From NCBI GenBank assembly GCA_051362555.1, contig CM120647.1:13244651-13308650 (forward strand): a stretch of DNA of 64,000 nucleotides. The letters run 5' to 3'. This DNA comes from Lingula anatina. Lineage: Eukaryota; Animalia; Brachiopoda. The translations under genes were made by a program, and so were the position numbers. Of this stretch, positions 334 through 47,354 are shown piece by piece. Every line of letters begins with the position of its first letter. Within the stretch, counting starts at the first letter, position 1. A model generated the notes under the pieces. That model searched no databases, had not been told where the DNA came from, and was given only the letters and a program-made list of their open reading frames with translations.

Positions 334-2168
334 GTCCTGCCTAGGACCAATTTCATTCCAAAAAGGTAGAGTACTAGTAATTAATGAATGGGTGGATGAA
401 AGGATGGATCAGTGGATGGACAGATTGGTAGATGGGTGGTTGGGTGATGGACCAATCAGTGGTTTATAGTAACACTGAAAATAATAATAATGCTCAGATA
501 ATGATAACCAAATAAAAATAATAATTTTATAAATTGATAGATAAAAGTGAAAAAGAAATGAGTCTAAAAGTGCTACGTCAATTTTCTTTACAGGTCTGTA
601 CCTGGACGCCCTAGCAGCAATGAAATATATTTTTCAAAGAGAGGACGTTGACCACTCTAAAATAGTTGTGTTTGGGAGGTCGCTAGGAGGGGCAGTAGCT
701 ATATATGTATCTACCCATCCACACTATAGCAGGAAGATCTTTGCAGTGATTTTAGAGAATACATTTACCTCCTTGCCACAGGTGGCTAAGGCAATATTTC
801 ACTTAGGTTTTCTACAAAGTTTACCAAACTGGAGTTTTAAAAACCAGGTGAGAAAATATATGTGTGATTTGTTTTGATTTTATTGATTTATTTAATATTA
901 TTGTAATATTTTTTTGGAGGGGAAGGGGTGAAGAGATGTGTTAACATCATATTGTTAGAGTAGGTATCTCTATTATAAGTGCAGAACTTTGAAAGGAATA
1001 TTCGTCTCAGAGGCGGATCCAGCAATATTTTCTGACAGTCTTCCAAGTTATCTTTGCTGATCCAGCCTCCATTTTTTACCGTCTTCCAACAGAAAAAAAA
1101 GATACCCTTAAATAAAAACGTGAAAATCTGACAGTCTTCCAGAAGACCCAGAATAGGCCCAAATCTGCCCCTGTGTCTGATTGTTCAAGTTACATTTTAG
1201 AATAAGAAATCATGTTATTATCATAATTGTAATTTTAATAGAAGGCCTTGAATCAATGATTTCAGTATCCATCTGTGATCCGTATCAGACAACTGCAGCT
1301 TCCTACTCTGTTCCTGTCAGGACAGAGTGATAATCTCGTCCCGCCTGCCATGATGAACGAGTTATACGATGTAAGTATTAATCGATCTGTGTGATGATAA
1401 ACAGTTTGATGACCAACTTTTGGATCATTACTGTAAATAGGTAATAATATAAATAATATATAATTATTAAATTTGTGCATGTACATATAATTCATATGGA
1501 TGGATGTTTCAGAAATCTGGCAGTATACTAAAAAGACTGGTGAAGTTTCAAGGAGCCTCCCATAACGAAACATGGCAGAGCAACGGGTACTATGATGCTA
1601 TAAATAACTTTATGATGGAGGTTAGTCAATTTGTGTAAACTTAAAGCCTCATTTTGAACTCAAGTGGATCTGTCAGACAATTTGTATTCTTAAAGATTGG
1701 GCAGATCATTGGACAAACTTACATCTCAGAATATTTCAAAGCCTTTCTTTGAAAAATCAATGAGTGAATTGAAAAAATCTTGGAAAGCTCTATGCCTCTT
1801 ACTAAGGAAATCTTATGCATGGTCTTTTTTCCTTATTATTCAAATTTCCTTTTTTTTTTTGACAAAATGATTAATATTTCCTTATTTAGTTAGAGTCATG
1901 TTGCAGTGGTTGCACACAGTTAAAATTTCATTGAATCTTTTAATTTTTCAAAGTTAAAAACACAAAACATAATGCTGCTCCCTCAAGTATGTAGATCTGT
2001 GTAATAATGATAAGTTTTTAGTTTATAAGGGTTCAATTGATTGAAATTTGACCTTTTTTTTCTTTCAAGGTATACAAATCTAAGGTTGTGAGATCGTCTG
2101 CGGACACAAGGTTAGAACTAGGTGACGGTCAAGGTGATCATGTGGAAGGGGAGGTCAAGGTCATCTAA
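1..2168 (+). CDS. ABHD13: Alpha/beta hydrolase domain-containing protein 13, 3' part (5' end outside window)
   Basis: Exons 1-77, 594-847, 1266-1370, 1513-1620, 2070-2168 join in frame through GT-AG introns. Motifs VEYRGYGKS, nucleophile elbow FGRSLGGAVA, ENTFTS, LFLSGQSDNLVPP (Asp) and GASHNETW (His) give a complete Ser-Asp-His triad typical of ABHD13. TAA at 2166-2168. Confidence 0.93.
301..332 (+). repeat. Poly-G tract (32 G) in an ABHD13 intron; potential G-quadruplex
   Basis: Homopolymer read directly from the sequence. Confidence 0.9.
1008..1173. mobile_element. Short non-autonomous DNA transposon (MITE) remnant
   Basis: Imperfect TIRs CAGAGGCGGATCC ... AAATCTGCCCCTG; no clean TSD. 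Confidence 0.45.
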
Positions 2169-21649: not shown

Positions 21650-23315
21650 TCATGTCTTGTTCTCCTTCTTGTTTTTATGTTTGTGATAAACGTACCCTGC
21701 ACCAGCGACCGCTGCAGCGCCAGTCAAACAAACAGCTGTCCTTAGCCAAAAGTTATCTGCCTGAAAAATCAAATAAATCAATAAAACAAAATAATTGATT
21801 AAACAAATGAATGGATTTTTCATCAAACAATTAAATGATCTGTTTGAATATTTTTCCAGTCATATATTTAAAACAAACTTCACAATTATAATTAAACTTA
21901 CTGTAACATTTACAAACTGCTGTAGATGTGACAGCAAAAATATGTTCATTGCATTAGATGTGACAGTGAGATTTCTTTATTGTGTTAGATGCGACTGTGA
22001 TCACAACATTAGTTATGACAGCAAAATTGAACAATTTTCTGCATGCCAAAATGACTCTCTGAGTGCACCTATACAATAAAGAACAGACGACAAAAACTGA
22101 CAATAGGTGAACTGAGAGGTGCATGGATGGAAGAAGGGATAAAAAGGACAGATGTAAAGACATGAGACAGACACACAGACAGAGACAAACACACACACAC
22201 ACACAGAACACAGACACACACACACACACACAGAACACAGACACACATACACACACACACACACAGAACACAGACACACACACACACACAGAACACACAC
22301 ACACACACACACACAGACACACACAGACACACACACACACACAGAACACAGACAGACACAGACACAGACACAGACACACACACACACACACACAGACACA
22401 CACACACACAGAACACAGACAGACACAGACACACACACACACAGAACACAGACAGACACAGACACACACACACACACACACACACAGAACACAGACAGAC
22501 ACAGACACAGACACACACACACACACACACACAGAACACAGACACACACACACACACAGTACACAGACAGACACAGACACACACACACACACAGAACACA
22601 GACACACACACACACAGAACACAGACACACATACACACACACACACAGAACACAGACACACACACACACACACACACACAGAACACACACACACACAGAC
22701 ACACACATACACACACAGACACACACACACACACACAGAACACAGACAGACACAGACACAGACACACACACAGAACACAGACAGACACAGACACACACAC
22801 ACACACAGAACACAGACACACACACACACAGAACACAGACAGACACAGACAGTACACAGACAGACACAGACACACACACACAGAACACAGACAGACACAG
22901 ACATACACACACAGACACACACACACACACACACACAGAACACAGACAGACACAGACACACACACACACAGAACACAGACAGACACAGACACACACACAC
23001 ACACAGAACACAGACAGACACAGACACACACACACAGACACACACACACACACACACACAGAACACAGACAGACACAGACACAGACACACACACACACAG
23101 AACACAGACAGACACAGACACACACACACACACAGAACACAGACACACACACACACACAGAACACAGACAGACACAGACAGTACACAGACAGACACAGAC
23201 ACACACACACAGAACACAGACAGACACAGACATACACACACAGACACACACACACACACACACAGAACACAGACAGACACAGACACACACACACACAGAA
23301 CACAGACAGACACAG

Positions 23316-23347
<32 letters not shown>

Positions 23348-24529
23348 CACAGACAGACACAGACACAGACACACACACACACACACACAGACACACACAC
23401 ACACAGAACACAGAACACAGACAGACACAGACATACATAAAGATAGACAGACAGAGAGAACACAAATAGTAGAAATTAAATGAAATAATAATAAGTGCAC
23501 CACACTGAGAAGTTATAAAAGGCGAACAAAGAAATGATAAAGAAATCAGGACCTGAAATGAAGAAAAATAAAAATAAGAAAATAAGAAAATAAAAAAAAA
23601 ATACCTGTTCACTCCACTCTACACCATATCTACACCAGGATGCAAAATGTTCGCAATTTTTCCAGAGGACATTGTATCCATAATCTCCCAGCTTTGATAG
23701 AGCCCTCTCCACGATCTCATCACATCTCGCAGGTCTGAAACAACAAAATTTGGGTGAGATGAATTTGTTCCACATTATCCAGTGGTCATCTAACATGTCT
23801 GTATTGGCATGGATGTGTTAACTGCTGTATCTTAACACCATTTACTTTTTTAAACATCAGTTTTCTAGTTGCACATCTTCACAAAACAAAAAATAAATAA
23901 ATGAATACTTCATCAACATAATAATATCTATTAGTATTCTACCTACCACAAACATTTACCTGTGTTTGCGATCTTTTCCATTGTTTTTGAATGCCTTACT
24001 CTCCCCCGCCACATCCCAGAAGGGAGAGACTTGAACAAAAGCCTTCTTTAATTGTACACCACAGGGGCTGCAGAACTTCCCTGGATCACCTTTGCCATCT
24101 TTTATTCCGTCATTTTCTCCAGTAAGGTGGATTACTTTCTCATCACCTGAATGTAAATATCAATTTTGTCATTAATTTAATTAATTTAAAATCTCTACTT
24201 CAAACCGCTCTTTTTTGTGGTATTGTAAAAGATCTAAAAATCAATCTTTTTACTGACATCACGTACACGTGTGTGCTCAGTTGACTCACTACATTTACTG
24301 TGGCCGTTATGTTTTAAGTGCATACACGTTTATTCTAGCTTCAGTCTACAACTACGCCAGCAAAATGAGCACATTAGCGTGAGACATTTTAAGGTGTTAC
24401 CCCCCCCCCCCCCCCACACTCACCCATATAAACAGCCCAGTGAGAGTACATCGACCTGTGAAACTCTATCATGTCTCCCGGCTCAAGGGAAGCTAACACT
24501 GTTTGGTTATGGCGTCGCACAACTTCCAT
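21650..24529 (-). CDS. PLAAT: Phospholipase A and acyltransferase (PLAAT/HRASLS), copy 2, 177 aa
   Basis: Exons 24529-24424, 24146-23960, 23734-23605, 21760-21650. The first three are the same size as in copy 1 (106/187/130). HWAVY, IHLT and NCEHF are intact. C-terminus [36 protein letters not shown]. Confidence 0.93.
22163..23464. repeat. About 1.3-kb compound (CA)n/CAGA/CAGAA microsatellite in intron 3 of PLAAT copy 2
   Basis: Read directly; absent from the homologous intron of copy 1. Confidence 0.97.
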
Positions 24530-25912: not shown

Positions 25913-27334
25913 CTATTCAGTAGTGCGAGATTCAACACGTGATGGTAACCGGCAAGATTTCAGTACCCTTCTTAGTTCTCTACGATATTTGGGCGCGCTG
26001 ATGCAGTAGAGCCAAAAATTCACAGCGTGGTTGGCGTAAAACAAGAAGATGGCAATTGTGAAAACCCACTGATGAACACGACCATACTTCCACAAATCTA
26101 GCACCCTCGTTTGTAAAAGATTATATGGCGTAACGAGGGCAACGTAGGAAAAAGTCACCACGAGTAACATTCTTTGCACTTGTTTTTGGCTTTTTTTCCG
26201 GACTTCATATTGGCTTGTATTGGCGTTTTGGGGGGTGCCAGTTTCTGAGATACCCGTGTCATCATGGTCGGTGGAGCTGCTCGTGCCTGTCATTGTGTCC
26301 TGGGTTACGCTCACGTGATTGATTCTCAGCGCAGTAGACGACGCGTGCGCATGGCGTTTGGTAGCCTTTCTGGTCTCGTAAATTATCGCGATATTTATAA
26401 CTGGTAGTGAGATCAGGGGTATGATCCAGTACAAAGTAGCCCCAAGCCAGGAATGGATGTTTGCAAAGTATGCAACGTCCTTTCCCATCCTCTGCGCAGC
26501 GCGAGAATCATAATGTAAGAAATTCCAGCAAATATGTCTTTCGCATCCGGGCATTTCTTCAAAAGCCAAACCAGTCAGAATTATAGGAGAGTTAATGATA
26601 ATTACGGCCAGAGCCACCGAGCACAGGACAATGCGCGTGTTTCGCACCGTACACAAAGACTGTGCTTTGAAGGGGAATTTAATCTTTACATACCGCTCCG
26701 CGCTCATAATTGTCAAGAACAGCCCGCTCATTTCCGGAGTACAATACAGAATAAACATGGTCAATTTGCATGTGGCTGCTCCATGGGATATTACACTAAT
26801 TCCAATATCGTGCTCAAAAAGGAACATGTATCCATCCAGCAGCACTAGAGTGTCAGTGACGGCCACGGCGGTCATGTACAAACACGTTGTGTTGCGCCGC
26901 AGAGACTTGCGGTGGAAGACGGCTACGGATAACATGTTACACACGATTCCAATGCTGTATACCATGACCCTGATAACCGCCCGGAAATGTATGAAGTCCT
27001 CGCTTGAGTCATCGAGGTACTGAGGAGAACTGCAGTTGGGAGCTGAATCATTGCCATTGTTTGTCATATCCTGACTTTGAAGTGTTTTGTCGAGGACTTG
27101 ATTCGACCGCGTGGCTCCGGAAATGTTGACAGCGTGGCCGCCATTTGCAGCAGATCTTTTTGTCTTTTCAAACAAGGGTTTTATTCCCAGTCGAGTTTGT
27201 TCCGCGTGACGCACAATTAAGGGTTTAAAACTGAGAACTGCGTTTGCACCAGTTGTCTCAACGCAATCCCCTACTTGTTGGAAGATAAAAATGCACACCA
27301 GTGCGCGTGCCCGACATATTCCAAGTGTGGTCAT
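25913..27334 (-). CDS. Class A (rhodopsin-like) GPCR of the invertebrate peptide-receptor type (FMRFamide/TRH-receptor-like expansions); single coding exon
   Basis: Seven hydrophobic segments. TM1 GIVCN, TM2 AVAVTD, TM3 C...MSAERY (DRY variant), TM5 IIP, TM6 VTPY, TM7 NHAVNFWLY, helix 8 YRREL. Splice acceptor just upstream (exon starts about 27429). Start is either 27334 or 27067 (MTNNGNDS). Confidence 0.92.
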   Translation of the reverse strand: MTTLGICRARALVCIFIFQQVGDCVETTGANAVLSFKPLIVRHAEQTRLGIKPLFEKTKRSAANGGHAVNISGATRSNQVLDKTLQSQDMTNNGNDSAPNCSSPQYLDDSSEDFIHFRAVIRVMVYSIGIVCNMLSVAVFHRKSLRRNTTCLYMTAVAVTDTLVLLDGYMFLFEHDIGISVISHGAATCKLTMFILYCTPEMSGLFLTIMSAERYVKIKFPFKAQSLCTVRNTRIVLCSVALAVIIINSPIILTGLAFEEMPGCERHICWNFLHYDSRAAQRMGKDVAYFANIHSWLGATLYWIIPLISLPVINIAIIYETRKATKRHAHASSTALRINHVSVTQDTMTGTSSSTDHDDTGISETGTPQNANTSQYEVRKKSQKQVQRMLLVVTFSYVALVTPYNLLQTRVLDLWKYGRVHQWVFTIAIFLFYANHAVNFWLYCISAPKYRRELRRVLKSCRLPSRVESRTTE

Positions 27335-29696
27335 TGTTGTGATGCAGACATTAATTAGTAGCGACCTTGCATAATTGGGAGGAAATGCAGATTTTACAAC
27401 CCTCGATTTACAGCTTGACGTTTATAAACCTGTGGAAAAAATGAAAATGCATTAAACTACGAGTAATGTGTAAGTATGAACTGCAAAAAGTTGGTGTGTA
27501 TGCATGTGTGTACACTGTATGCATATTTTCACGATTGGCGTGGATGCTTGAGCGATATCAGGATATCATTCGAAACTGTAAGTAAACTGCTCGGGGTTGC
27601 AGATGACTTGCAGCTACTTCATTAATATACATTCACATATATGCACAAGACAACATGAATTGACATTTTAAAATATTTTTAAGAAGAGTCCGGTCTGAAA
27701 CTTATACAAAATATTACCAAAAAAAAAACGCATTTATTCTACTTTATTTCAACTTTTTGATTTTCGTTAAGTTAAGATGCTATTCTTTAATAATGGCCAA
27801 CTCAACCATGTAAGAACGGGCTACTCTTCATTTTTACTTTGCGCTTTCGGGTCTTTTTCGATTTCTGATAAGACGTTCGATAATAAATTACTCGACCCAA
27901 TTGGGCAATAAACTTACTTTAACCTACATTGAGTTAATGCAGATAAGGCAGTAAACCCGTGTTCATTTTCCCTAATAGTTTCCCTGACAGTGGTCCGTAT
28001 CCATCTCACATGGGACGGTTCCCGTGGCTCTATCACTTTTCAAACCCACTCTCCACTGACCCCATTATACGGCTATACCCTACCTTTGGTTCCAGGGTTC
28101 GGTATTGCCAGCTCGATCTTGATTTCTTATATAACCCACATCAGCAATAGTCCATAAAGTGTACCCGTGTAAATAGGAAGGGTATTGTGGACAAGCTAGC
28201 TTTATAATGCCATATGTCACTCAGGGTAGCTATACCCACTTCTAGTAAACTCTGGCAATAAAAAAAAAAAACTCCCACCTGTTCTTACAAGCAGCTTTTT
28301 CACGTTTTCGTGGTCACGGAACGGCCTGTCTCACAAATAGGGGGGGGGGGGATCCTACAGAAAACCACCTTTTAACCCTGGTTTGACCATCATAAACATA
28401 TGCGTTGGTGTTGAATCACCATGCAGTAGCGAAAGTTACTGTAGACGTTTAGCGACTGCTTAGCTGTGAGATGAAACAGGACGCACAGCGTCACGTCTTC
28501 TTTAGAGCTTCATATTTGCTTAGTGATATATGTATGTTAGTGATAACGGCCTGATGAAGTCTCTTAATATTACGTGGTAGAGGAGAGAAGTGGAGGACGC
28601 GGGGACGACCGATGAATGTACGGCAGCAAACGCTGAAGTATGTATCATGCTGTGTAAATACGATACTTTCATAGTATCCGCTGTACTTGTACGTTGCTGA
28701 GATATATATGAAAAACTTCGATCGCTTTATCTCCCCACTTTCTCCTTGTCGCTGCCCGTCTGTTCACTGTGTGAGTGTGTGTGTGGAGAGAGAGAGAGAG
28801 AAAGAGAGAGAGAGAACAAATATACTCACCTCTTTTACATTTCTGCTAAAAAAGTCCGAGTTGACATTGAAATCACACAATCTGCGTGTATACCATGAAA
28901 AGCATTTAAGATGTCAACCTACGCACAAGGATGTTTAAACCAGCCGAGTCATTTAAAGATCATTTTAACGTTATTTTTGCTTCGACGCCAGATTTTCCTG
29001 TTTTGTTTTTTCTTTTCCTTTTATTCAAGCCAGCACCACAACGATTTAATAATGCGCCCCCACAAAACCACATATGACGTTAACACCGATAATCGTACTG
29101 AGAGCTGAAAGCTGGCAATGAAAACTAAATTATTTTATAAAAAAAATAGGCAATATGCTTTGCATAAACCTTAGAGTTTAAATATTTATCGCTTGATATT
29201 GTCTGAAAATATTGTGTTGTGAGTTAATAATATTCAGAATATTTTATGGACATAATAATAAATATATAAATAACATACTGTATGAATTACTGCAATAATA
29301 ATAAAAATAATAATAATAAGTCTCCGATAATATTTGAATACAGCGTAAGTATTATATTTTGTAACGGAAAAAATGATAAATACCCTGAAACTTAACTAGG
29401 TCAGCCAATGATTTATTTTTTCAGTTCTCTTCAAATGTGCCAGAGACTAAACCTTACACGGAAACAAAAAGTGTGCTATATATAATAATTAGGTCAGAAT
29501 ACTTTCAAATGAGTTACTTGATGTTTCTTGTGAATAAACACCACAGAACCCTACAGATCACTAGTATCCCATCCTCGTTTAATGGAAATGGTAATAATAT
29601 GTAAATAATAATATTAAACCTAATATCCATTAAAAGTTAAAGCTGTCTCTACATAAAACAATGTATATAAACACAATTACCAATAAACAGTATGTG

Positions 29697-31189: not shown

Positions 31190-32653
31190 GTATTGGTCCT
31201 AGAAACCACGTCTCTGTCCAAGATCCTAACGGAAGATTACCTAACGTGCAGCATATGCCTTGAAAGGTTCAAAGACCCCAAGGTCCTCAGCTGTTCACAT
31301 ACGTTTTGCCAGCACTGCCTCCAAGACCGTTTAGACAGAAATTTCTGAGGTCAGCCTGGCTTCCTTTGTCCTCTCTGTAGACGTCAGTGTGACCTCCCTA
31401 GGGGCGGTGTAAATTGTTTGCAAACAAATCAACTTCTGGTCAGCATATTACACACACTTGGACAAATAGATCAAGCTAAAGCTGCCAAGAAATGCGAGGT
31501 ATGTTTCCTGAAAAACACCCACAATTCGCCGACGGCAACCAAACGCTGTTTGGACTGCGAGGAAAGTATGTGTGGAGATTGTTCTTCGGAACATGTGCTT
31601 CATAAGTTAAATCGTGACCACAAACTGTTTCCTGTCGACCAGTTTGACAGCGACGAATACGTGACAGAGCTGCGTGCCCGACAAAACATCCTTTGTGACC
31701 ACAACAACAAGGACCCCGTAGAAATCTTCTGTCCAAGGAGTAAAAAGTTCATATGTGTCGGTTGTATGGTTTTAGACCACAAGGATCATGATTGCCTAAG
31801 AATCAATATTGCTGCCGACAAACGCAAGGAAAAACTAAAACTCCACGTGAAACCCATCGAGAAGAAAAGTATACTCTGCGATCAGTTTAAAACCGCTGCT
31901 GAAGACAAGAAAGCTTCAGTAGAAAAGGGAAGAAAGAAGGCAAAGAATCAAGTTAACAAGCAGTTACAGCTAGTTATGAAGATGGTCCGTCAACGTGCTG
32001 ATGATCTTCTGGAAGAAAAAGATGCCAAGTCGAACGCCATACTGGAAGTTTTAGATGGTTTAATTGCAACTGCTACCGCCACCCAAAACCAACTGGACGA
32101 CGTTGTAGACCTCGCGAGAAAGCTCATAAACCACGGGAACGATACGGACCACGTGAGAATATTCTACAGTGAGTCGCCACATGCAGTAGCGGTCAACAGC
32201 CAGAGTCACTATGTAGTGGTCGGTGACCGTAGTCTGGCTGTGCACCACAAGGAGGGCGAGGTCCTGCAGACGACACCAGACCCAGCAGGGGGTAAATATT
32301 GTAAAAACGTCCACTGTAACGCGAATGATGACATCATCGTCACAGATCCAGGAAATGATAACATCCGTGTATACGATCCGACTCTCCAGCTTAAATACAG
32401 ACATGGTACCAAGGGTGATGGGGACGGACAGGTGAGCCTTCCAGGCGGCACGTGCTGCTTGGATAATGGAGGCATAATTATTACGGAATTCGGCGACCAA
32501 CGTCTGCACCTGATGTCACCGGATGGAAAATTCAAGAAGTTTCTTGCAAACAAAAAAATTAGACTATTCAAGCCAGAAGATGTTGTAGTTAATTGTCTCG
32601 GACAACTGATAGTTGGGGAACAGACAGGCAAGATTAAAGTCTTCCAATTATGA
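31190..32653 (+). pseudogene. TRIM-NHL (RING, B-box1, B-box2, coiled coil, NHL) E3 ligase with an in-frame TGA in the RING; probable pseudogene
   Basis: [27 protein letters not shown]...RNF*GQPGFLCPLCRR with TGA at 31346-31348, in frame with ORF 31418-32653. B-boxes CEVC...CLDCEESMCGDC...H and CDH...FC...IC..C...HKDH, a coiled coil, and only about 4 NHL blades. No ATG seen at the expected start (TTG at 31193). Confidence 0.8.
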
Positions 32654-35736: not shown

Positions 35737-36801
35737 ATGGCTCGCCGTTGTTTGCTAGGATGTTTGGCAATTTTGCTTTACTGTGGAATTGCTATGTGTC
35801 TGCCTCCTATTCAGCAATTGCGCACGTGAGTATAAGATCTATTCTTTGTTGATAAGACAGTTACTGTGTGAGGAAAAACGTTATTTTTAGCTGATTTTTA
35901 TTTTTGGTGAATATGCGTACTGGCAGATCTATTACTTAGCTTGCAGAGAGGGTGGACGCATGAAAACAATTTGCCAACCTTTGCTAAGCATATTTATGAT
36001 TGACGATTGAGGATAGTTTTATTACAGGTATAATATTTAGGTCGCAGGAATGGCAGAATCACTTGGTTTTGTCTCGTTTTGATTGTTAAACTGTTTTGAT
36101 ATTTTTTTAATTCGGGGGGGGGGGGGGGGGGGGGTGAAGGGCAGGGAGGGGTACGTGGTAGTGGTTATGATACCGCCCGACCGCCATTGTCAATAATACA
36201 TGTAAACCGCTACATTGGAACCATGCACTATCGAGCTGACATATAACCAAGATCGACTGCTGCAAGGGTACAGCTACATGTAGTACATGCCCAAGTGAAA
36301 TATTCCTCATAGGTGTGTTGTGCTGCGTATGACAGAAGTCCCGGCCACTCTCACGACTATGCTTGGTTGATTTTAGTGGCAGGTTTTACTGTGCGAAGCA
36401 CAATATGTTAGCGCCCCCCCCCCCCCCCCCCCCTTAAAGACCACACCAACAAGATACAGTCTATTCAGAACCGTGTTGTAGTAGAGGTTCACCTGCATCC
36501 TCTCGGATCTCTCGGTAAAAAAACTGATTAAATTCGGTCTTCATTCGAACACTTACTTGTCGCTCTCAGTCAAAAACGTTTTCTACCTGCAGTATACCCT
36601 AAGGTCGCATTCAGAACAAGTTGATCCGCTGACTAACAGCTCCGCGGATCAAATATTGCTGACCCACTTGAAAGCCTGCCACATAACCCCCTAACAGACA
36701 CTGAATAGATTCCCCGCGGGGATTACTCGGCAAGCCTTCAAGGGGGTTGATCACCTTTGATCCGTGGAGCTGCTAGTCTGTGAATGCAGCTTAAATTTAT
36801 G

Positions 36802-36834
<33 letters not shown>

Positions 36835-39800
36835 TAGGATTATACAAATTATCTTCCTAAATTTAACGTCTTACACAGGAGCGTTTTTATTGTCATTAGG
36901 TGACAGTGCGACCTCCATATACCCTTTGCGGCTTGGCAGGCTCCAGCGGGCTGTCACTTTGAGTTACTGCACGTACCGCTATCAGAACCACCGGTTGATT
37001 TTTCATAAGATATTGACAGAAATGTCGGATGTGTCTCTGGCTTCTTCATGACGATTATTTTTTTCATGCTGTGTCCAAGGGGAATTTTTTCATAGAATAT
37101 GTCACCACTCAGTTGGCTTGTATTGAGCGAATTGTAAAATAGGTCAATTTTTTTCTCTTTTGTAAGAACTCATCTTGCCCATTTTCCCACTGAGTCCAAC
37201 GAGTATATTTGTATGGAATATGCCATCGCTCAGTTGGCTTCTTGTAAAAGGTTCATTCTTAAACTGGTCAAAATGGTCAATCATCTTTTTCAAACTCGCC
37301 CAACCCATCTTCCAAGCATTCTGCCCTACTGTCGTTCAGTCAAGCAATGCATATTTCCTTTTTTACTGCATGAATGGTAAAGACATAATATACATTAACT
37401 TTTTTTAGATTGCCATCTTATCAAAATTAAATCAGCATGAGAATGCACTTAACTGGGTACGAAATACATTTTAGGTCAGTACAACGTAGGATTTGAAGTA
37501 TGGTGACTGAGTTAGGCGATGACTTGGGTCGGCAGGTGGCATAAGCTATTATGTACATGTACCGTGATAGAGGGTGATCATGATTTACTGCAATTCATCC
37601 CCTCCCCCTCCCCCGAAAAAAGGAGCATTGAGTTATAGTCTTAATCACTATAATATTAATGTGTTTTCCAGATTTCCCCTTCTTGTGCTCAATTTTAAAT
37701 GGGCAATTTTGAAAAGATTAATGCAGAACACGCTCGCTGTCCCATTACCACAGTTATTCAGCTACAGTCAGTGAGAGAGAGAGAGAGAGTTGTATGTGTA
37801 CCGTTATGATGAGCATCATGCACATTGTATCGACAACTCGGCCAGCAGAAGTGAAATATCATCAAATTATCTAACGCTGCACAATGTTGTGCTTTTGGCA
37901 TTTCTGGCAATTATCTTCACATCGTTTAATTTATTTTATCTTTTTTTTACTTGTTTCCTTTTTTGCCATTGTTCGCAAAAGTATCACATAAACCTATCAT
38001 TTAGCTATTATGCTCGTGGACAGAATGTTACAACCTTTAAATGACTCGATAATATGATAACCATACCTCTCAAAAGACTAAGAGAGTGATTTAAAAAATG
38101 GGCAGAATTCAGGAAAAAGGTAACATGCAAAAAAGCCTGTGCTATCAAAAGGCTCCAAGGGAATTATTTTTTAAATATTAAAAGTCTATAATTACCGTCT
38201 ATATCATTTACAACCTCTGGAAGTTTTCCCCGATGACTAACACTTTCATACTTTCATACCCGCGGCATGGTTCTGTCTTTAGGTCTAAGTACGCTGTTTA
38301 CGTTTTATCATCACCGTCAAAATTAAGGTGTCTGTTTTTTTAATATGGGGTCAATTACATGACTTGGTTCTAAAAAATGCTGTCTCGTGGCATTTCAAAA
38401 ATGTTCTCTGAAATTATCATATTTAACGGGTTTTATTTTTTCTTCCTATTTTACTTTGTTTCGGATTTTTTTTTTCTTCCGAACCATAAAACAATCCACA
38501 GTAAGGTTAACAGAGTTTCTTCCTGTATTTTTGCATTTCTTTATTTTAGTACATTTTTGTGACAGAAAAAAATAAACAAAATAAAATAACATCGATAATT
38601 AAATATAAGACCATTTTTTTTTCAGGAAAGTTCCGCGACAAACCATTAATGTCAACATCAGTCTTTGGGAGCACTACGAAGACGTCCTGAAGGAAATTGA
38701 CGAACAGGAAAACGGACCTCTCCGGAAATTACTGAAGGAAGTCGTGGATAAGAACCCCGGCATCGCTCCCGCCGGAAGTCTATTCCAGCGACTACACATA
38801 CCCGAGAAGCTTCCAGGCGGCAAAACCGGGTTCGAATCCGATTTCGATTTTCTGGACCCCTCTGTGAAAGCTCTGGAGGCCCCCCATTCTGCAGTCAGAT
38901 TGGTGAAAGTTCCCAATTCCGACGTGTACGTCCATTTGTATGTGAACAACCAAAGGGTAACCCCCTTGCACAGACGTCTTAGCATGGCTCGCTTCTACGA
39001 CCCCCAGCGGTCTGGCGTCTCAGTGGACATTAAATACTGGGCGGCGCCTAATAATACAAAAGGCACGTGTCTTAATAATACCGTCACCATCCTGCTGCAC
39101 GGGTTCGACCCTAAAACCAACAGGACACGCCCACCGATCCTTACCGCCCGGATGTACAAGGGATATCAGAGTTTCACCACCCCTCCGTACAAATCCTGTT
39201 TCGTTGATGAGGGCGGAGACAAGGAATGCTGCGACGGAAACGTCCCGGACTCCGAGGAAGGGTTCGCCAATGATTACAACCCTGGCTGGGTGGACACGAA
39301 CGCCGTGGATGCCATTGGAGGGGCAATAGGAAAGTTCATCACCATGCGCCCAGACGCCGAGGTCGTCATGGACGTCGTCCTCGTGTATCGCACCTCGTGG
39401 CCCACGTGGTTCCGGCAGTGGGAGGAGCCGAACTGGCCCAGGATGTGGCCTCAGGGGGAGACCGTCGCTCTGCTGAAGAACACCGGGGCTGAAGTGACCC
39501 GGAAGTCAAACGATGACGACAGAGCGAGCCAGGAGACGTGGCGCCTCGTTTTCGTCCAGGCTGAGAACATTTTGATCAACACGTGGAACAAGGAACAACG
39601 CACGTTGATGATGTTCCTGAAGGCGTTGAGGCGCAAGTACTTCCAGCACGTCGAAGACGCCATTACGGGATTTCATCTCAAACTGCTCTCCTTCTGGGTG
39701 GTGGAGGAACTGGGGACAGATTGGAGGCTCGCGGACATGAACGCTGCTGTGTCAGAGGCACTGGCCAGCATTCAAGATGTCTGCAAGAATCGATTCTTGC

Positions 39801-40090
39801 CCAATTACTTCGTCCCGCAAGTCAATGAACTGGATGGCGCATCTCCTGAGGGATTAGACGAAGTGTCTGACATCATAGACGATATTCTTAAAGACCCCGA
39901 TACTTACTTCATAGAAAATCTATTCCGTAATGTTAGCGAAGCTGAGCACTCATCAGGGTTCAAGTACACTATGTTTTATGAGTCTAGCCACGCAAGCGGT
40001 GCTACATCAATTTATCATATATCTCTTCTACCTGTGCTGGGGTATATATCTGTCTCTATCTCTTGTTTTGTGAAACGCGTCTGGGTTTAA
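35737..40090 (+). CDS. Secreted or surface-anchored Mab-21/cGAS-like (cGLR) nucleotidyltransferase, about 517 aa
   Basis: Exon 1 35737-35825 (MARRCLLGCLAILLYCGIAMCLPPIQQLR, phase 2, gtgagt donor) joins exon 2 38626-40090 (tttttttcag acceptor) in frame. NTase motif AGS(x20)DFDF at 38771-38851 and third Asp in MDVVLV (39371). Mab-21 signatures WRLVFVQAENILI, FLKALRRKY, ITGFHLKLLSFW, FLPNYFVPQVN. Hydrophobic C-terminal tail. Confidence 0.85.
36600..36793. mobile_element. Harbinger/Tourist-like MITE, family B, in the Mab-21 gene intron
   Basis: taa|ggtcgcattc...gaatgcagc|tta ends; internal inverted repeat ctaacagctccgcggatcaaa / tttgatccgtggagctgctag; homologous to 40573-40757. Confidence 0.7.
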
Positions 40091-40572
40091 TATTAGCTAC
40101 CAGTAAGAGCCAACGCTGAGACGCGGATTAGAAAATTGCGAGGCATCAGCAATATAGTGCACTGTAACTGATTTTCACCTGAACTCTGCTAGTTGTATCT
40201 CAAGAAACTTTTTCTGCATTTTTGGTTGAAAATATAAGAAAGTACATCAGCTTTTGACGTTTTTTTTTTTCACATTTTCTCTTCTTTCAATGTTTGCGCA
40301 CTGTGGCATTTGCTAGAAGCGTAATGAAAAACAAGGGTTCATTTTCCTGTAACCTTTGCAAAATAAGGTTAGCTAAAGACATTATTTTTAACCTCAAGGA
40401 ACCTTTCTAGCACCTTTAAAGCGTTGGGTGGAACTTTGTTTTTTTTATTACTACTGGTATATTTATCAGGAGATTTTTTCTTTCGTTTAACATCAAGGTG
40501 TACAAATAATGTACTGCACCTGCCTAAGAACAGCTACTAATATAATTACTATATGCTTTGCTGAGTGACTTT

Positions 40573-40757
40573 GAGCCCATACAGAACAGCGGTCTAACAG
40601 ATCCGAGGATCAAATATGGCGACCCACTGAAAAGCTTGTCGCTTAATGCCCGACTAGACACTGAATATATTCCCCGAGGAGATTACGCTACAAGCATTTA
40701 AGTGGGTCGGCCATATTTGATCCACTGATCTGTTAGTGTGCTTTTCCGAATGCGCTC
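40573..40757. mobile_element. MITE family B, second copy
   Basis: ctaacagatccgaggatcaaatatggcgacccact...agtgggtcggccatatttgatccactgatctgttag inverted repeat; shares agacactgaata.attccccg with the 36600 copy. Confidence 0.7.
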
Positions 40758-42785
40758 TATTACCTGTTATTTTCGTGCTCAGTCAAAACTCTACGTGCAT
40801 TTCTAAAAAAAAACCTTAGACTATCTTCAACATAATAGGCCTGTATAGAGATACATATACGTTGTGTGTATTTTTATAAATTTTATGATTCATGAATATG
40901 ACTATATACCACAGTCCAGAGACGGGTTAAGCACGAGGACGGTTGGATCTTCTAGGACAGGAACTTGATTTTAAACCAACTACATTTGACTTTGAATATT
41001 TTTTTACTGCTGTGAAACACCAACTGGGCGCCTTTGTGCCAGGCGCATTTTTTAGACTAGGAAGCACTGAAAACATCCGTGTTTTTAGGCTATTTGTTGA
41101 GGTTCCGTTTGCCAAAATATGTTTGCATTGTATCAATTTTGTAGTGCCAATTTTTAAGCATTGTGGGTTAGCTGTTTAGTACCCGGATGATCTCATATGA
41201 CGCCAATATGACGTATTTTAATTCTGATTGGCCGATTACAATTATTCTACTAATAAACAGACCTACATGTATGACTTAAACTTGGCTCCCGTTTTTTCTA
41301 TTCTTGCTATTGTTTCACGTACTTATGATGAGCATAACAATTTCTATAAAAAGTAGATTAAATTTTAAAAAAATATTAGCTATGAAAGCTGAAAAATTGT
41401 AAATGTGATGCATATTGTGCAATGCATTTGTGAGAAAAATGACGCGTCATTGTGACGTAGCAGAACTCGAAGGCATCCGTCACCTCGTAGAACGTAATCT
41501 TACGTTAGCTACCTGTAACGTCAAAAGTAACAAAAAAACGATCATGGCAACGTAAATACACAAGGCCAGCATACGTTGCCGCATCATAAAAAGAACGGTG
41601 AGTAAGAGTCATTTTGAGTCTTTTAACAATGATTTTATTGTCATAAACTGCTAACTCAAATGCTGAATTTTCATGTAATTTAGATTGTGTCAAAGCTGTG
41701 TCAAAATTCTGGATAGGCGGTTTCAATGCAGGAATATATACAGTAGCTTGACTACTGTTTGGTGAAAACAAGCATTCTAATCGAATAAAAACATCTACTT
41801 TGGCTGTGCCAAAATTATCGCTTATGATAGAAACTGACTCGATAAAAAAGTCATCATTGATTGATGTAGGCAACAAATTTATAAGGTTATTGCCTTGAAT
41901 ACGTTCAGATAAAAACACGCCTTTCAAATAGCGGTCGAATATTACGATGCCGTATACTGGGACAAACTCGAAAAAAAAGTTCTTTGATTGAAGAGAAGCA
42001 ATTTGAAAACTGAAGTAGGAATGTAGGATGCGCCACGCAGTATGTTGATTGATGAAGCAACCAGTTAATTGCCTCGTGCACATGCTAGTAGAATATCTAC
42101 GTACAGTTATAGGCCGATATCGATCAGAACAAATGGGAATCATTCGCGGTAGCTAGCCTAAAACGAGGCAGAAATGATCCGTGAGATGCATTATGTTAGT
42201 TTTTATTGGTACTCTGTACACCACTCGCTAAAAGACAATTGCCTATTTCTGACCTTTCTGTCCTCAAATTTCCGAGAAATCTCGGCTGATTTTACCGTAA
42301 GTCATCATCAGCCGTCTTCTCAGCAAATAATATGCGTTCAGCCTGCCTAACATACTAGTACACCCGATACACGATCGAAAGACAGTACATGCATGTACCG
42401 GTACTTTTCTGAATGAACATGATCACGTGGCTGTGCCAAAATTATCGCTCATGATAGAAACTGACTCGATTAAAAAGTCAGTTTAGACTGAGTTTAGACA
42501 TAGACTCAGTTTAGTATTAGATCATTTAATTGTAAACTTTATCTTTAGAGTAACCTTAGCCATTCATTCCTTTGTTGTTACATGTACTACATGTATACTG
42601 AGATGTTTACTACAGCTAGCTTATCATTCATTCAACAAATGAAAAAAAAATTTTTTTTTCATTAATTTAAAAAATGATACGATCGATGGTTTCCTGCAGG
42701 ATGGCTTACTGTAAACAAGTTGTTTCATTTTCATTCCCATACCATTTCACCATTCTTTGTCTCTTTAAAAAGGCAGGTTCCACAT

Positions 42786-43571
42786 ATGATGAGCGATTTC
42801 CTACGGTTATTCACAACGGACTGTTGCATGGGCTCCTCGAAAGACCTCACTGTTAGTTCCAACGTCTTCCGGCAGGTGGCAGGGCTGCGGGACCAGCTAC
42901 ACATCATGCGGTACCTCTTGATATGCAGCATCATAGCAACGGTCCTCTTTCTCATCATCGCTGCTCTTCTCGCGCGCAGACGCTCGCCCGTGCTGCAGCC
43001 CCCGAGGCCAGGTTGTCATGACAACCACCGTGCTAAAGGGACGGGGAAGACGTTTGAGGGAGAGAAGGGCCGCGGTCAAATTCACTGGGACGGCGGCGAG
43101 AGTCAAGCGTCTCTGATCATCCCTGTACCCGGCAAGCCGTGCGTGGAGTGGGACGGTGGAGCCAGCCAGACCGCTCTCTACGCGCAACAAAGTATCCGGG
43201 ACTTTAAACTCTCTAAGTGGAAAAAACCTTGTACAAGAAATCTGGTAGGAACTTTTTGTTTTAGTTATATGTTGATTTTCTTTTCGTTCTGTTTGTCATT
43301 CGTTTTTTCTTTTTCTTTTTTTATTTTTCACTCTTTTATTATATATTTTTACATTTACTTTTTTACGCCTTTTAATTGACTGGTCTTAGACTTTGAGTTT
43401 ACTGGTAATAAGTTGTATAATTTCTCATCTAAAGAAAACAAAGAAGTTAAAGAAGACATAATTGTGTTAGACCAAGAAGTGCATGGTTTACAGTGATGAT
43501 TGCCAAAAGTGCGTATTTTAAATACTTAAAATACTTTCTTTTTAGATTCCGCGGCTAAGGGAGGAAATTAA
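42786..43571 (+). CDS. Putative small single-pass membrane protein of unknown family; 5' structure uncertain
   Basis: GC-richer open frame 42786-43191 with one TM helix (YLLICSIIATVLFLIIAALLA) followed by RRR and two WDGGxSQ repeats. Possible phase-1 splice to 43546-43571 (NSAAKGGN*). AATAAA at about 43989. Confidence 0.5.
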
Positions 43572-44485: not shown

Positions 44486-44854
44486 ATGATGTTTGGTAAG
44501 TGAATGGCTTTAGCTGGGATTATGTAATGTTGCGAACCGAACGAACTTGGATTACTTATCGAACGTAATTGCTAACCAGGTCCAGGCTGACGATTTATTC
44601 TGTTATTCCACTTGTATATTCTAAATATATGTCCCATTTTGAACAAGTCGTATGATATCCCTTTCTTAGTCTCTAGAAATATCCTTTCATTGTAATTCCC
44701 CGTGTGGGCACATGCTTGTACATTTATGTTTGTTCCAGGAATTATATTAATGATAATAAATGGTGGAGGACAGCGGTGTAGTTGATACATAAATCAAACA
44801 TATTCATGTTTCACATGTGGGTTATGTCTGTGTGTGTGTGCATGCTTGAGTGCT

Positions 44855-44907
<53 letters not shown>

Positions 44908-45415
44908 TGATACTGCAAAAGCGCCCAAAAATCTCACTTTTTATCGTCTTGTTTTGCGCTTTGCCAATTAAAATTTTCTGGCCTGCCCATACTTACTACT
45001 GGTAGTAATTATTATAATGATAATTTATTTCTCAGAATAACTTATTGATAAGAACTAATAAAACTAAGTTGATTGATATTTCCCTTTCACCAGACACGTT
45101 AGAAATGCTGCAGGATCTGGAGACAAAGTCAAAGAAAGAATGCAGCTTGAAGGAGGAGGAGAAAAAACAAGATGATGAACTGAAGCAGCTGAAGATGAAA
45201 GTGACCAGGTTGCAGCAAAAGAAGAAGTGGTTGCAGCAACAACTCAGTAAAGAGGTGTTTATACTTTAGTCCTCTAGCTGTTTTAATCTGAAAATGATAA
45301 GGGTACATGTATTAGCATTCGGGTGTATAATAGTGAAAAATAAGGTGAATACATGAAATGAAAAAGGCATGGTAACACAGTATTACACTGTCATCTGACA
45401 ACTTAGTAAATTACT

Positions 45416-45501
<86 letters not shown>

Positions 45502-47354
45502 TTTAGTCTCCTCTACAACAAGTAGACATAAACAACATTGACAGTCTGGACAGAGAGGAGAAGTCAGAGCTACTGGATGCTGCTTATGCTGCTCAACAGA
45601 AAAAGTTGGAAGAGATGGTCGTACTCCACAGGCTAACAGGCATGACAGTTATAAATAACCCAACTTAATCTAAATATTATAATTTATTTGTTAAATTTAT
45701 TTAGAGAGAACCAGTTTTACCATTCTTGGCTCTTCGGTGACCCATAATGTACCAGACATTGCTTCTTGGACATGAGAGATCATGAGGACTCTTTCATTCA
45801 TTCATTCATTTATTCTTTGTGTGTTTGCTCTCTCTCTCTTTTCTTTCTTTCTTTCTTTCTTTCTTTCATTCTTTCTTTCTTTCTTTCTTTCTTTCAATGA
45901 TTCACCAGGCAATTAACTAGTGTTTCTTTTATTCACAATTTCAGGTATTTCTATCGACCATATCAAACCAGAGGCGATACGTATCTGCTGGGATACCTCA
46001 TATGGAGGGGAATTCTTCGAGGCTTTCTATGCCGAGGTGACCCGCTCCAGAGACAAGCTGACGGTCCAGCACCACTCCTTGCCATACTTTCTTCCCATCA
46101 ACTCTCTGATCACCAGACACCTGAATACAGATATCACTGTGTTTGCAGAGATGGTGTCCAAGTATCTGAATGTGTTTGTGGAGAAGAGACAGGAAGCTGT
46201 CAATGCTGAGGTGAGAATGGAAAGTGTTGAGGGGTTTTTCCTAGTACAAATACTGTGGTTGAGTAAATGTTATAGTTTTTTTTTCTTCAATTACATGGCT
46301 TTTTTTAAATCTATTGAAGTCACAAATCCTTTGATAAAGCTGGAAGTTCTAGGTAAAAGAGAAAAAAATTCAACTGACTGTTATTGGCTCTTCACTAATG
46401 TTTTGCTCACTCTTGTTTGAGAACTTTTACAACTTTTTGAACAACAGTCAAATTAACATAACTTTTTAACTTAAAATGTACCCATACTGAAGGCACACAT
46501 GCATGCACGCACACCCACACACCTGCACTCGACCAAAAAAGTTTGCAAGCATCATTATAATTTTGAATAATTATGAAAAGACCATAATAGCTAAAGTAAA
46601 TATTTTAACCAAATATTGACAGATAATGCACCCACCATTCTTTACTTCTTTATGTACACAGACAATTTCCATAACCAGTATATAGTTTTTAACTTTTTGG
46701 TCGAGTGTATATACTAAACGTATTCGGTGATGACTAAGCTGCTAAATGCTCACTCGACAATTCCAGAAGGAGTTTGGGCTGTACATGTCCAAGCCTATCG
46801 CTGCCAGCCCGTCCTGTGACGTGATCGAGTTCAGCCTGAAGCCCACCATGGTCCCAGGAAAACTCCACACGCAGCTGTTCTATAGCGATCTTCTCCAGCC
46901 TCTGCCCACTGAGGTAGAGGTGGAGTGGAGAGGTGGGGCACTAGTGCATTAATCAATTAATTAATTAACTAGTTATTTACATACTTAATTTATTAATAAA
47001 TTATTTGTGATTATCTATCTTTATAGTTAGTCATCAATATGTTAACAAATATACTTAGTAATTCTTTGGTGAGGAGAGTTGGGATTCTAATTAATTGATT
47101 AATAAATTTATTGATCAATTAGATAATTTTTGTGTTTTTCTATGTTCGTAGTTAGTCATCAATTTGTTCATATATATTCATTTCAAAGGGTCTACTCCCT
47201 AGCTCTAGAGAACAGTATTGACTGTAAAAGACATTTTCCTCTGTTTTCAGGTAAGGAAGGTGTGCTATCCAGAGAAGACATCTTCAGAGTCAAACAGATA
47301 TTTCTGTCAAAGTCATTATGCAGTGCTTTGGAAGAGTTGGTCACTAAAGTTTGA
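44486..47354 (+). CDS. CENPO: Centromere protein O, 279 aa
   Basis: Exons 44486-44495, 45094-45254, 45507-45639 (GC donor), 45945-46210, 46767-46932, 47251-47354 in frame. N-terminal coiled coil, then HRLTGIS...ICWDTSYGGEFFEAFY...VQHHSLPYFLPI...YLNVFVEKRQ, matching the CENP-O/Mcm21 RWD region. Confidence 0.87.

Follow-up and report, generated by a model that had tools for sequence, protein, structure and literature searches.

Cells synthesize cyclic dinucleotide signals in the cytosol, and export carries these to other cells. Extracellular cyclic GMP-AMP (cGAMP), its importers, ENPP1 and signal-bearing poxins have been described (PMC8204762; citations by PMC number refer throughout to parts of the articles concerned), and no cyclic dinucleotide synthase of the cell surface was found in the literature searched. 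That Mab-21 proteins might acquire signal peptides or transmembrane segments by exon shuffling, and perhaps be secreted, was proposed in 2007 for vertebrate proteins, with N-terminal signals only (PMC1784063). The subject here is a two-exon gene predicted in a stretch of Lingula anatina DNA of 64,000 nucleotides (the window), whose 517-residue product, the window protein, would combine a signal peptide, the intact catalytic triad of a cGAS-like receptor (cGLR) and a C-terminal anchor. Judged from sequence, it is best read as a secretory-pathway, probably anchored ecto-nucleotidyltransferase of the cGLR lineage. The initial annotation of the locus knew of no described member of this kind. The 2007 proposal of signal-bearing Mab-21 proteins predates that claim of novelty; what survives of it is the combination of signal, triad and C-terminal anchor, of which no description was found in the open-access literature, subscription papers lying mostly outside that scope.

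The domain is contained in an open reading frame (38609-40090) that has no start close to its 5' end. The initial annotation had placed a signal-peptide exon upstream, in the right phase, and a predicted exon of this kind is found there. It opens with an ATG in strong context (A at -3, G at +4), reaches a hydropathy of 2.6 in its best 11-residue segment and ends in phase 2 at the donor CAC/GTGAGT, which at 4.35 bits ranks sixth among the 334 GT sites between 32.7 and 38.6 kb (scored with a matrix of generic donor frequencies). The acceptor, tttcag/G, is pyrimidine-rich, and the predicted join gives 1554 nt encoding 517 residues, with no internal stop, a single terminal one, and a junction codon for Thr made up of the last two bases of exon 1 and the first base of exon 2. 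(Residue numbers refer to this two-exon model; P0001, the translation of exon 2 only, is offset by 30.) When ATG-to-donor mini-exons of 20-50 codons were collected from both strands of the whole window and passed through an ad hoc n/h/c signal-peptide heuristic, exon 1 alone was signal-like among the 32 found on the plus strand, 9 of which are in phase 2; the heuristic was written with this candidate already known, which makes the result a test of plausibility. Two of the 28 minus-strand mini-exons also pass, both from one locus at 41.5 kb (a signal-like mini-exon is seen at 41587-41484, minus strand). No candidate for a phase 2-2 internal exon was found within the intron, and no paralogue within the window. 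Only two 19-residue windows of the 517-residue model have a hydropathy above 1.0, at residues 5 and 494, that is, one at either end.

The fold attributed to the protein, that of Mab-21 and cGAS, is borne out by profiles and predicted structure alike. Pfam Mab-21_C (PF20266) matches residues 325-417 of P0001 at 2.1e-10 (41.1 bits, cut-off 24.1) and Mab-21 (PF03281) matches at 4.8e-5 (23.9 bits, just below the cut-off of 24.1); sequence matches in the PDB are led by Sp-cGLR1 (8gjy, 6.1e-8), followed by MAB21L1, MB21D2 and cGAS. A structure model of P0001, computed from 102 aligned rows (P0001 and 101 of 150 listed matches, mostly shorter than about 740 residues), has a predicted local distance difference test score (pLDDT) of 73 and a predicted template-modelling score of 0.75. 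It compares with cGAS (4k96) at Z 27.7, with a root-mean-square deviation of 2.8 over 309 residues in the model range 9-429, and its best Foldseek match is MAB21L1 (2.9e-13). The alignment on which the model was built is itself cGLR-like, so that the predicted fold is not independent of it, and from the single sequence the fold was not obtained (pLDDT 35). Nucleotidyltransferase core and Mab-21 C-terminal helical lobe are both found, and, as in the definition of cGLRs by Li et al., homology extends over both lobes, with a predicted structural match to cGAS and cGLRs. An atlas search placed P0001 with generic cnidarian and mollusc Mab-21 clusters (0.92; P0003, a relative introduced below, 0.89; recognition below 2300 for both) and also returned TMEM102, as a lead only (0.86, 0.84). 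The window protein is taken as a variant of the Mab-21/cGLR kind and is not classed as a canonical cGLR.

The catalytic residues named at the outset (G-S, D-F-D and a third Asp in MDVV) all fall in the catalytic columns of the family, as G80-S81, D102 and D104, and D279. In the other 99 rows of the 102-sequence alignment, 78-96 of which have a residue at a given column, these columns hold G in 77, S in 70, D in 73 (E in 10), D in 77 and D in 93, the last being 93 of the 96 other rows with a residue there. R336, E343, K362 and K382 match further near-invariant columns. The alignment thus supports an intact acidic triad in the window protein; by its columns, the catalytic G-S and the three acidic residues that Li et al. 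look for in a cGLR are in register. The literal cGLR motif, h[QT]GS X8-20 [DE]h[DE]h X50-90 h[DE]h (PMC9980059), is another matter: the window protein reads P-A-G-S, X20, D-F-D-F, 172 residues and then M-D-V. Between the columns of the second and third Asp lie 174 residues in the window protein and 185 in P0003, where 73 other rows have a median of 114; the spacing is loose among these 73 scorable matches, 11 having at most 95 residues and 3 at least 170. (A V-D-I near residue 163, tried as the third Asp, suits the 50-90 spacing and is contradicted by the alignments; it was rejected.)

The long insert between the second and third Asp is modelled with low confidence (pLDDT below 50 for residues 170-228 of P0001), and the BLAST alignment to P0003 extends through it. 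The four Cys and five glycosylation sequons of the initial annotation are present: Cys 178, 221, 231 and 232 lie in the insert (a fifth is C416), and the sequons are at N40, N172, N180, N195 and N465. As evidence of glycosylation the sequon count was rejected, ~3.0 being expected from composition, and the glycosylation proposed by the initial annotation is supported only in part. The modelled domain is acidic (isoelectric point, pI, 5.05; 46 basic and 62 acidic residues), as is its spine helix (5 basic, 9 acidic). Nucleic-acid-sensing cGLRs have a pI above 8.5, and some auto-active cGLRs are as acidic as 5.0 (PMC9980059). The basic ligand surface of the sensing members is not found here, and, because the domain is acidic, the window protein is unlikely to be a nucleic-acid sensor.

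Part of the evidence for an outward-facing domain comes from two relatives. A HMMER scan of 1.84 billion representative proteins gave 1096 matches at 1e-3, of which the best 150 were examined. The top two of the 1096, P0003 (1.2e-30, 587 residues, 31%) and P0004 (1.3e-25, a fragment of 314 residues, 30%), are singletons from contigs of 2523 and 4412 bases. They form a clade with the window protein in a quick tree of the catalytic core alone (151 rows, Shimodaira-Hasegawa-like approximate likelihood ratio test support 96), and the same three-member clade is recovered in a careful tree of 47 of these rows, namely the best 32 matches and neighbours taken from the quick tree (support 95/87). P0003 keeps the acidic triad at about 30% identity, and has the insert as well. 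It has a 31-residue signal-like start, a Pro/Ser-rich spacer and a hydrophobic end, and alone among the 150 listed matches it passes a test for GPI (glycosylphosphatidylinositol)-like tails at a threshold of either 1.75 or 1.9. Its 8 sequons amount to a density above that of all 148 non-clade listed matches (the 150 less P0003 and P0004). P0004 ends in a strong membrane helix (Kyte-Doolittle value KD19, 3.17), followed by CKKRK and four more residues. None of the 148 is hydrophobic at both termini; the N-terminus is hydrophobic in 14 and the C-terminus in 6.

Wider searches brought no further member into this clade. A word-indexed search of 5.8 billion proteins, within a limited length range, gave no related sequence among 7981 candidates for the window protein, only P0003 itself for P0003 (1 of 4056) and only P0004 for the three-row alignment (1 of 7985). 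Scans of metagenome, viral and prokaryote contigs with that alignment confirmed 0 of 596, 0 of 115 and 0 of 470 pattern matches, and so, within the low sensitivity of these scans, nothing points to a viral or bacterial origin. The architecture of signal, Mab-21 domain and GPI anchor that the initial annotation thought worth seeking elsewhere recurs at one end, both P0003 and P0004 finishing in anchors; at the other end P0003 failed the signal heuristic and P0004 is N-terminally incomplete. Among the other matches, a separate supported Mab-21 clade (P0026, P0061 and P0110, with P0047) carries N-terminal membrane helices and GS/GG...DFD, and P0022 has a signal-like start by the heuristic.

The C-terminal anchors of both clade-mates lend independent support to an outward position of the domain. 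The lumenal or extracellular active site of the initial annotation gains backing in this way, and on the whole such a location is probable; if it is right, a membrane tether is likely in its turn. An ordinary cytosol-facing cGLR, in which exon 1 would not be the first exon or would be an uncleaved anchor, and the tail would be read-through or a tail anchor, is an unlikely alternative. It can appeal to a junction that rests on sequence prediction, to tail codons that look non-coding and to the basic residues that flank the N-terminal hydrophobic stretch (two ahead of it, three within the 15 residues that follow); Itprip, moreover, a protein of the outer nuclear membrane, faces the cytosol (PMC6550788), and the separate clade of P0026, P0061 and P0110 has N-terminal helices only. 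What it does not readily accommodate is that both ends of the model are hydrophobic and both clade-mates carry a C-terminal anchor, as against none of the 148 other listed matches with both ends hydrophobic; nor the sequon excess of P0003; nor the phase, start context and uniqueness of exon 1.

The nature of the anchor is less settled. Small residues followed by a hydrophobic tail are present as claimed, with candidate omega sites at A486, S487 and A489 and a run of mean Kyte-Doolittle 1.79 over 14 residues; homology to P0003 and P0004 extends to about 39985. A GPI-like threshold of 1.75, set just below the observed 1.79, is passed by the window tail, by 8 of 904 chance open stretches and by 1 of the 150 listed matches (P0003). 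The GPI anchor drawn from these features fared only partly well (the hydrophobicity is moderate, terminal residues are basic, the codons are non-coding-like and homology is lacking) and is plausible, not established. With a real signal and a tail that is no GPI signal, the protein would be released, or exon 2 would be spliced to a candidate exon at 42876-43244 that encodes a membrane helix, yielding a P0004-like type I receptor. Either outcome would change the anchor and not the outward position; the two together are improbable, in a measure that overlaps with other readings. The weak tail speaks for them, as does a coding-like plus-strand frame 2.8 kb downstream, with a membrane helix, then RRRS, and an acceptor at 42876; set against this, the strongest phase-0 donor ahead of the stop has a score of -1.37 bits and its use would remove the segment conserved with P0003 and P0004, and in-frame ATGs occur within the downstream frame itself. 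From 39850 to the stop no donor exceeds -0.5 bits, and splicing to the 42.9-kb membrane exon was rejected as the main model, there being no good donor to pair with it. Provided that the signal exon is correct, the domain stays out of the cytosol under each of the four outcomes, GPI anchor, terminal helix, secretion and spliced-on helix.

That downstream frame (42678-43379, plus strand; coding-like at about 42790-43244) encodes two WDGG(E/A)SQ repeats after the helix and RRRS, has a donor at 43245 and no Pfam match under E 0.05, and is a candidate either for a small membrane protein in its own right or for an additional exon of a gene. A donor-like CCA/GTAAGA (2.08 bits) stands at 40103, 12 nt past the stop, where a 3' untranslated-region intron is possible.

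If the domain is lumenal or extracellular, the enzyme is likely to be active, and taking the parts together we give an active, outward-facing nucleotidyltransferase of cGAS fold about an even chance. Condensation of nucleoside triphosphates (NTPs) to a dinucleotide is favored because every close structural neighbor of known activity carries it out; a dinucleotide product, rather than transfer to a macromolecule, is itself a roughly balanced proposition. An outward-facing enzyme that transfers a nucleoside monophosphate to protein or glycan in the endoplasmic reticulum (ER), the Golgi or at the surface, with no free dinucleotide, is judged rather unlikely. Donor-side residues are kept while the equivalent of cGAS S378, listed among the cGAMP-binding residues (PMC4117786), is V; the long insert could accommodate a macromolecular acceptor; and Fukutin and FKRP, of nucleotidyltransferase fold, act in glycosylation (PMC2794190). 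Contrary to this, the leading structural and sequence neighbors are all cGAS, cGLR, MAB21L1 or MB21D2, the R376 equivalent is kept (the Y436 equivalent is F), and no acceptor is known.

NTPs are scarce outside cells. This counts for a further, still less probable reading, in which the outward-facing protein would have little or no catalytic activity and would serve, on a cGAS fold, as a nucleotide-binding receptor, a ligand or an adhesion molecule. Many Mab-21 members are without activity (PMC2794190; PMC12928593), ITPRIPL1 is a surface ligand (PMC11357910), and P0003 and P0004 alter a near-invariant E and K. On the other hand, the window protein and P0003, about 30% identical, have both kept the triad, which points to selection for metal binding.

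Several observations weigh against an active, anchored ecto-enzyme. The splice from 35825 to 38626 and the 3' end are predictions from sequence, and exon 1, which passes the heuristic for a cleavable signal peptide, does so where the N-terminus of P0003 fails it (hydropathy 1.33, lower than in 14 of the 148 other listed matches). P0004 lacks its N-terminal half and, taken alone, could be a tail-anchored, cytosolic protein. Of the three clade members two are singletons, and the rows of the trees were all selected by likeness to the query; the root is arbitrary. The window tail fell short of the first GPI-like threshold, 1.9; it ends in KRVWV, with two basic residues in the last five; its codon score, -0.054, lies close to the median for non-coding sequence (-0.099, n=515); G+C at third codon positions drops to 0.3-0.43 from 0.6-0.9 in the core; and it does not align with the anchors of P0003 and P0004. 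The window protein has neither the four-Cys module and linker that precede the anchor in those two proteins nor their CxxC loop. (No Pfam match was found for the module, and no exon for it among the matches listed in the window, a weak test of so short a module.) The sequon count of the window protein is near chance, 8% of the 148 other listed matches being equally dense. At the active site, the S378 column (S in 89 of 99 rows) is V in the window protein and G in P0003, and P0003 and P0004 substitute Q for a near-invariant E (E in 98 of 99) and E for a near-invariant K (K in 97 of 99); activity or product may, on account of these changes, differ within the clade. Finally, three shrimp Mab21 proteins make no cGAMP and act by protein binding (PMC12928593).

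On the favored reading of an active, outward-facing nucleotidyltransferase, exon 1 would, by its sequence statistics, supply a cleavable signal peptide, and the whole domain would pass into the ER lumen because the hydropathy scan places no membrane segment between signal and domain. The tail would then be exchanged for a GPI anchor or retained as a weak terminal helix, which is the least certain step. D102, D104 and D279 (residues observed, in a predicted fold) would bind metal and NTP as in cGAS. The enzyme might be constitutive or might respond to a cationic or protein ligand, for which the Cys-bearing insert would be a candidate sensor; DNA or RNA is probably not the switch, activation by either being improbable because the surface is acidic. 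As substrate the enzyme would take lumenal ATP, or NTP that damaged cells release; neighboring cells would be the target of its product, by analogy with CD38 and CD157 and their use of nicotinamide adenine dinucleotide (NAD). Were an enzyme of cGAS fold active on the outer face, synthesis would take place outside the cell, or the fold would prove to have been reused for lumenal nucleotide transfer. The window protein, P0003 and P0004 are three concrete sequences now on hand for testing, and a secreted branch may be missed by surveys of cGLRs that rely on spacing motifs and express trimmed domains in bacteria.

The window is animal genomic DNA with introns and microsatellites, and the features located in it are collected in the table. 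A palindromic element resembling a miniature inverted-repeat transposable element occurs in two copies (74-81% alike) at 36623-36780 and 40573-40757, flanking exon 2 at a distance of 3960 nt from each other. A 215-codon frame at 41505-42152 (minus strand) has no Pfam match; 64 nt are repeated at 42428, and it is likely a mobile-element relic. A CENP-O-like multi-exon gene lies at 44487-46952 (plus strand), its exon 45917-46420 matching PF09496 at 1.6e-4, below cut-off, and its remaining exons being the analyst's reading, not profile matches. About 1.6 kb of CA-rich microsatellite at 21954-23618 is a source of long spurious frames. No link of the B-box/NHL, seven-transmembrane receptor, LRAT and alpha/beta-hydrolase neighbors to the cGAS-like gene is evident.

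Features of the cGAS-like gene and its neighborhood, in window coordinates
Feature	Position	Strand	Remarks
Exon 1, predicted	35737..35825	+	89 nt coding, phase 2; signal-peptide-like leader, codons 1-21 at 35737-35799
Intron, predicted	35826..38625	+	2800 nt, GT...AG; contains one copy of the short palindromic repeat (repeat families D2/D5)
Exon 2	38626..40090	+	entire Mab-21/cGAS-fold domain, tail, stop codon
G80-S81, nucleotidyltransferase loop	38774..38779	+	from alignment columns
D102-F103-D104, first two metal-binding acids	38840..38848	+	strand E66-76 of model
Long insert between second and third Asp	39014..39331	+	beta-hairpin and low-confidence loop, 4 Cys, 3 sequons, partly common to P0003
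D279, third catalytic Asp	39371..39373	+	aligns with Asp of the SVDLT strand in Sp-cGLR1 8gjy
Mab-21 C-terminal helical lobe	39599..39877	+	PF20266
C-terminal tail	39986..40090	+	small-residue omega-like sites, hydrophobic run, stop; GPI-like or weak terminal helix
B-box/NHL gene	31349-32653	+	
Rhodopsin-family seven-transmembrane (7TM) receptor	25913-27421	-	
LRAT-domain exon	23476-23817	-	
Alpha/beta-hydrolase exon	551-877	+	

The closest described systems are the cGLRs (Sp-cGLR1, 8gjy; Cv-cGLR1, 8gjw; cGAS, 4k96), with which the window protein shares a nucleotidyltransferase core, a helical bundle and the GS...DxD...D triad, Sp-cGLR1 being its best PDB sequence match; acidic, nucleic-acid-independent members exist among them as well (PMC9980059). 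In six supplements of that paper (first 400 characters of each cell) there is no mention of signal peptide, transmembrane segment, GPI or secretion, and none of four motifs of the clade occurs. Unlike these cGLRs, the window protein has a predicted signal peptide and a likely C-terminal anchor, 172 rather than 50-90 residues before the third Asp motif, a Cys-bearing insert, PAGS in place of h[QT]GS, and V at the S378 column.

The ITPRIP-like proteins have degenerate active sites, and their Mab-21 domain is placed after a membrane helix. These vertebrate DANGER proteins (ITPRIP, ITPRIPL1/CD3L1, ITPRIPL2) resemble the window protein in having a Mab-21 fold and an N-terminal localization segment on an exon of its own (PMC1784063). 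They differ from it in that their signal or membrane segments are N-terminal (PMC1784063) and Itprip faces the cytosol (PMC6550788), while the anchor of the window protein follows the domain; in the predicted 517-residue model no membrane segment precedes it.

Fukutin and FKRP, located in the Golgi lumen, are nucleotidyltransferase-fold proteins of the LicD group and, as noted, act in glycosylation. They belong to group XXIII, not to group XXIV with Mab-21 (PMC2794190), are without the Mab-21 helical lobe, and use nucleotide-activated donors. By function the nearest parallel is with CD38 and the GPI-anchored CD157 (BST-1), surface enzymes whose cyclic nucleotide messenger is produced extracellularly, the so-called topological paradox (PMC3329556); these have another fold and use NAD, and no CD38-family match appeared among the matches listed in the Pfam, PDB and structure searches. 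A small animal clade of ecto-cGLRs, with a signal-peptide exon, GPI or type I anchors, and extracellular dinucleotides made from released NTPs without nucleic-acid sensing, is a tentative proposal and on present evidence a doubtful one; if true, the clade would provide the synthase that pairs with the importers and hydrolases already known for extracellular cGAMP.

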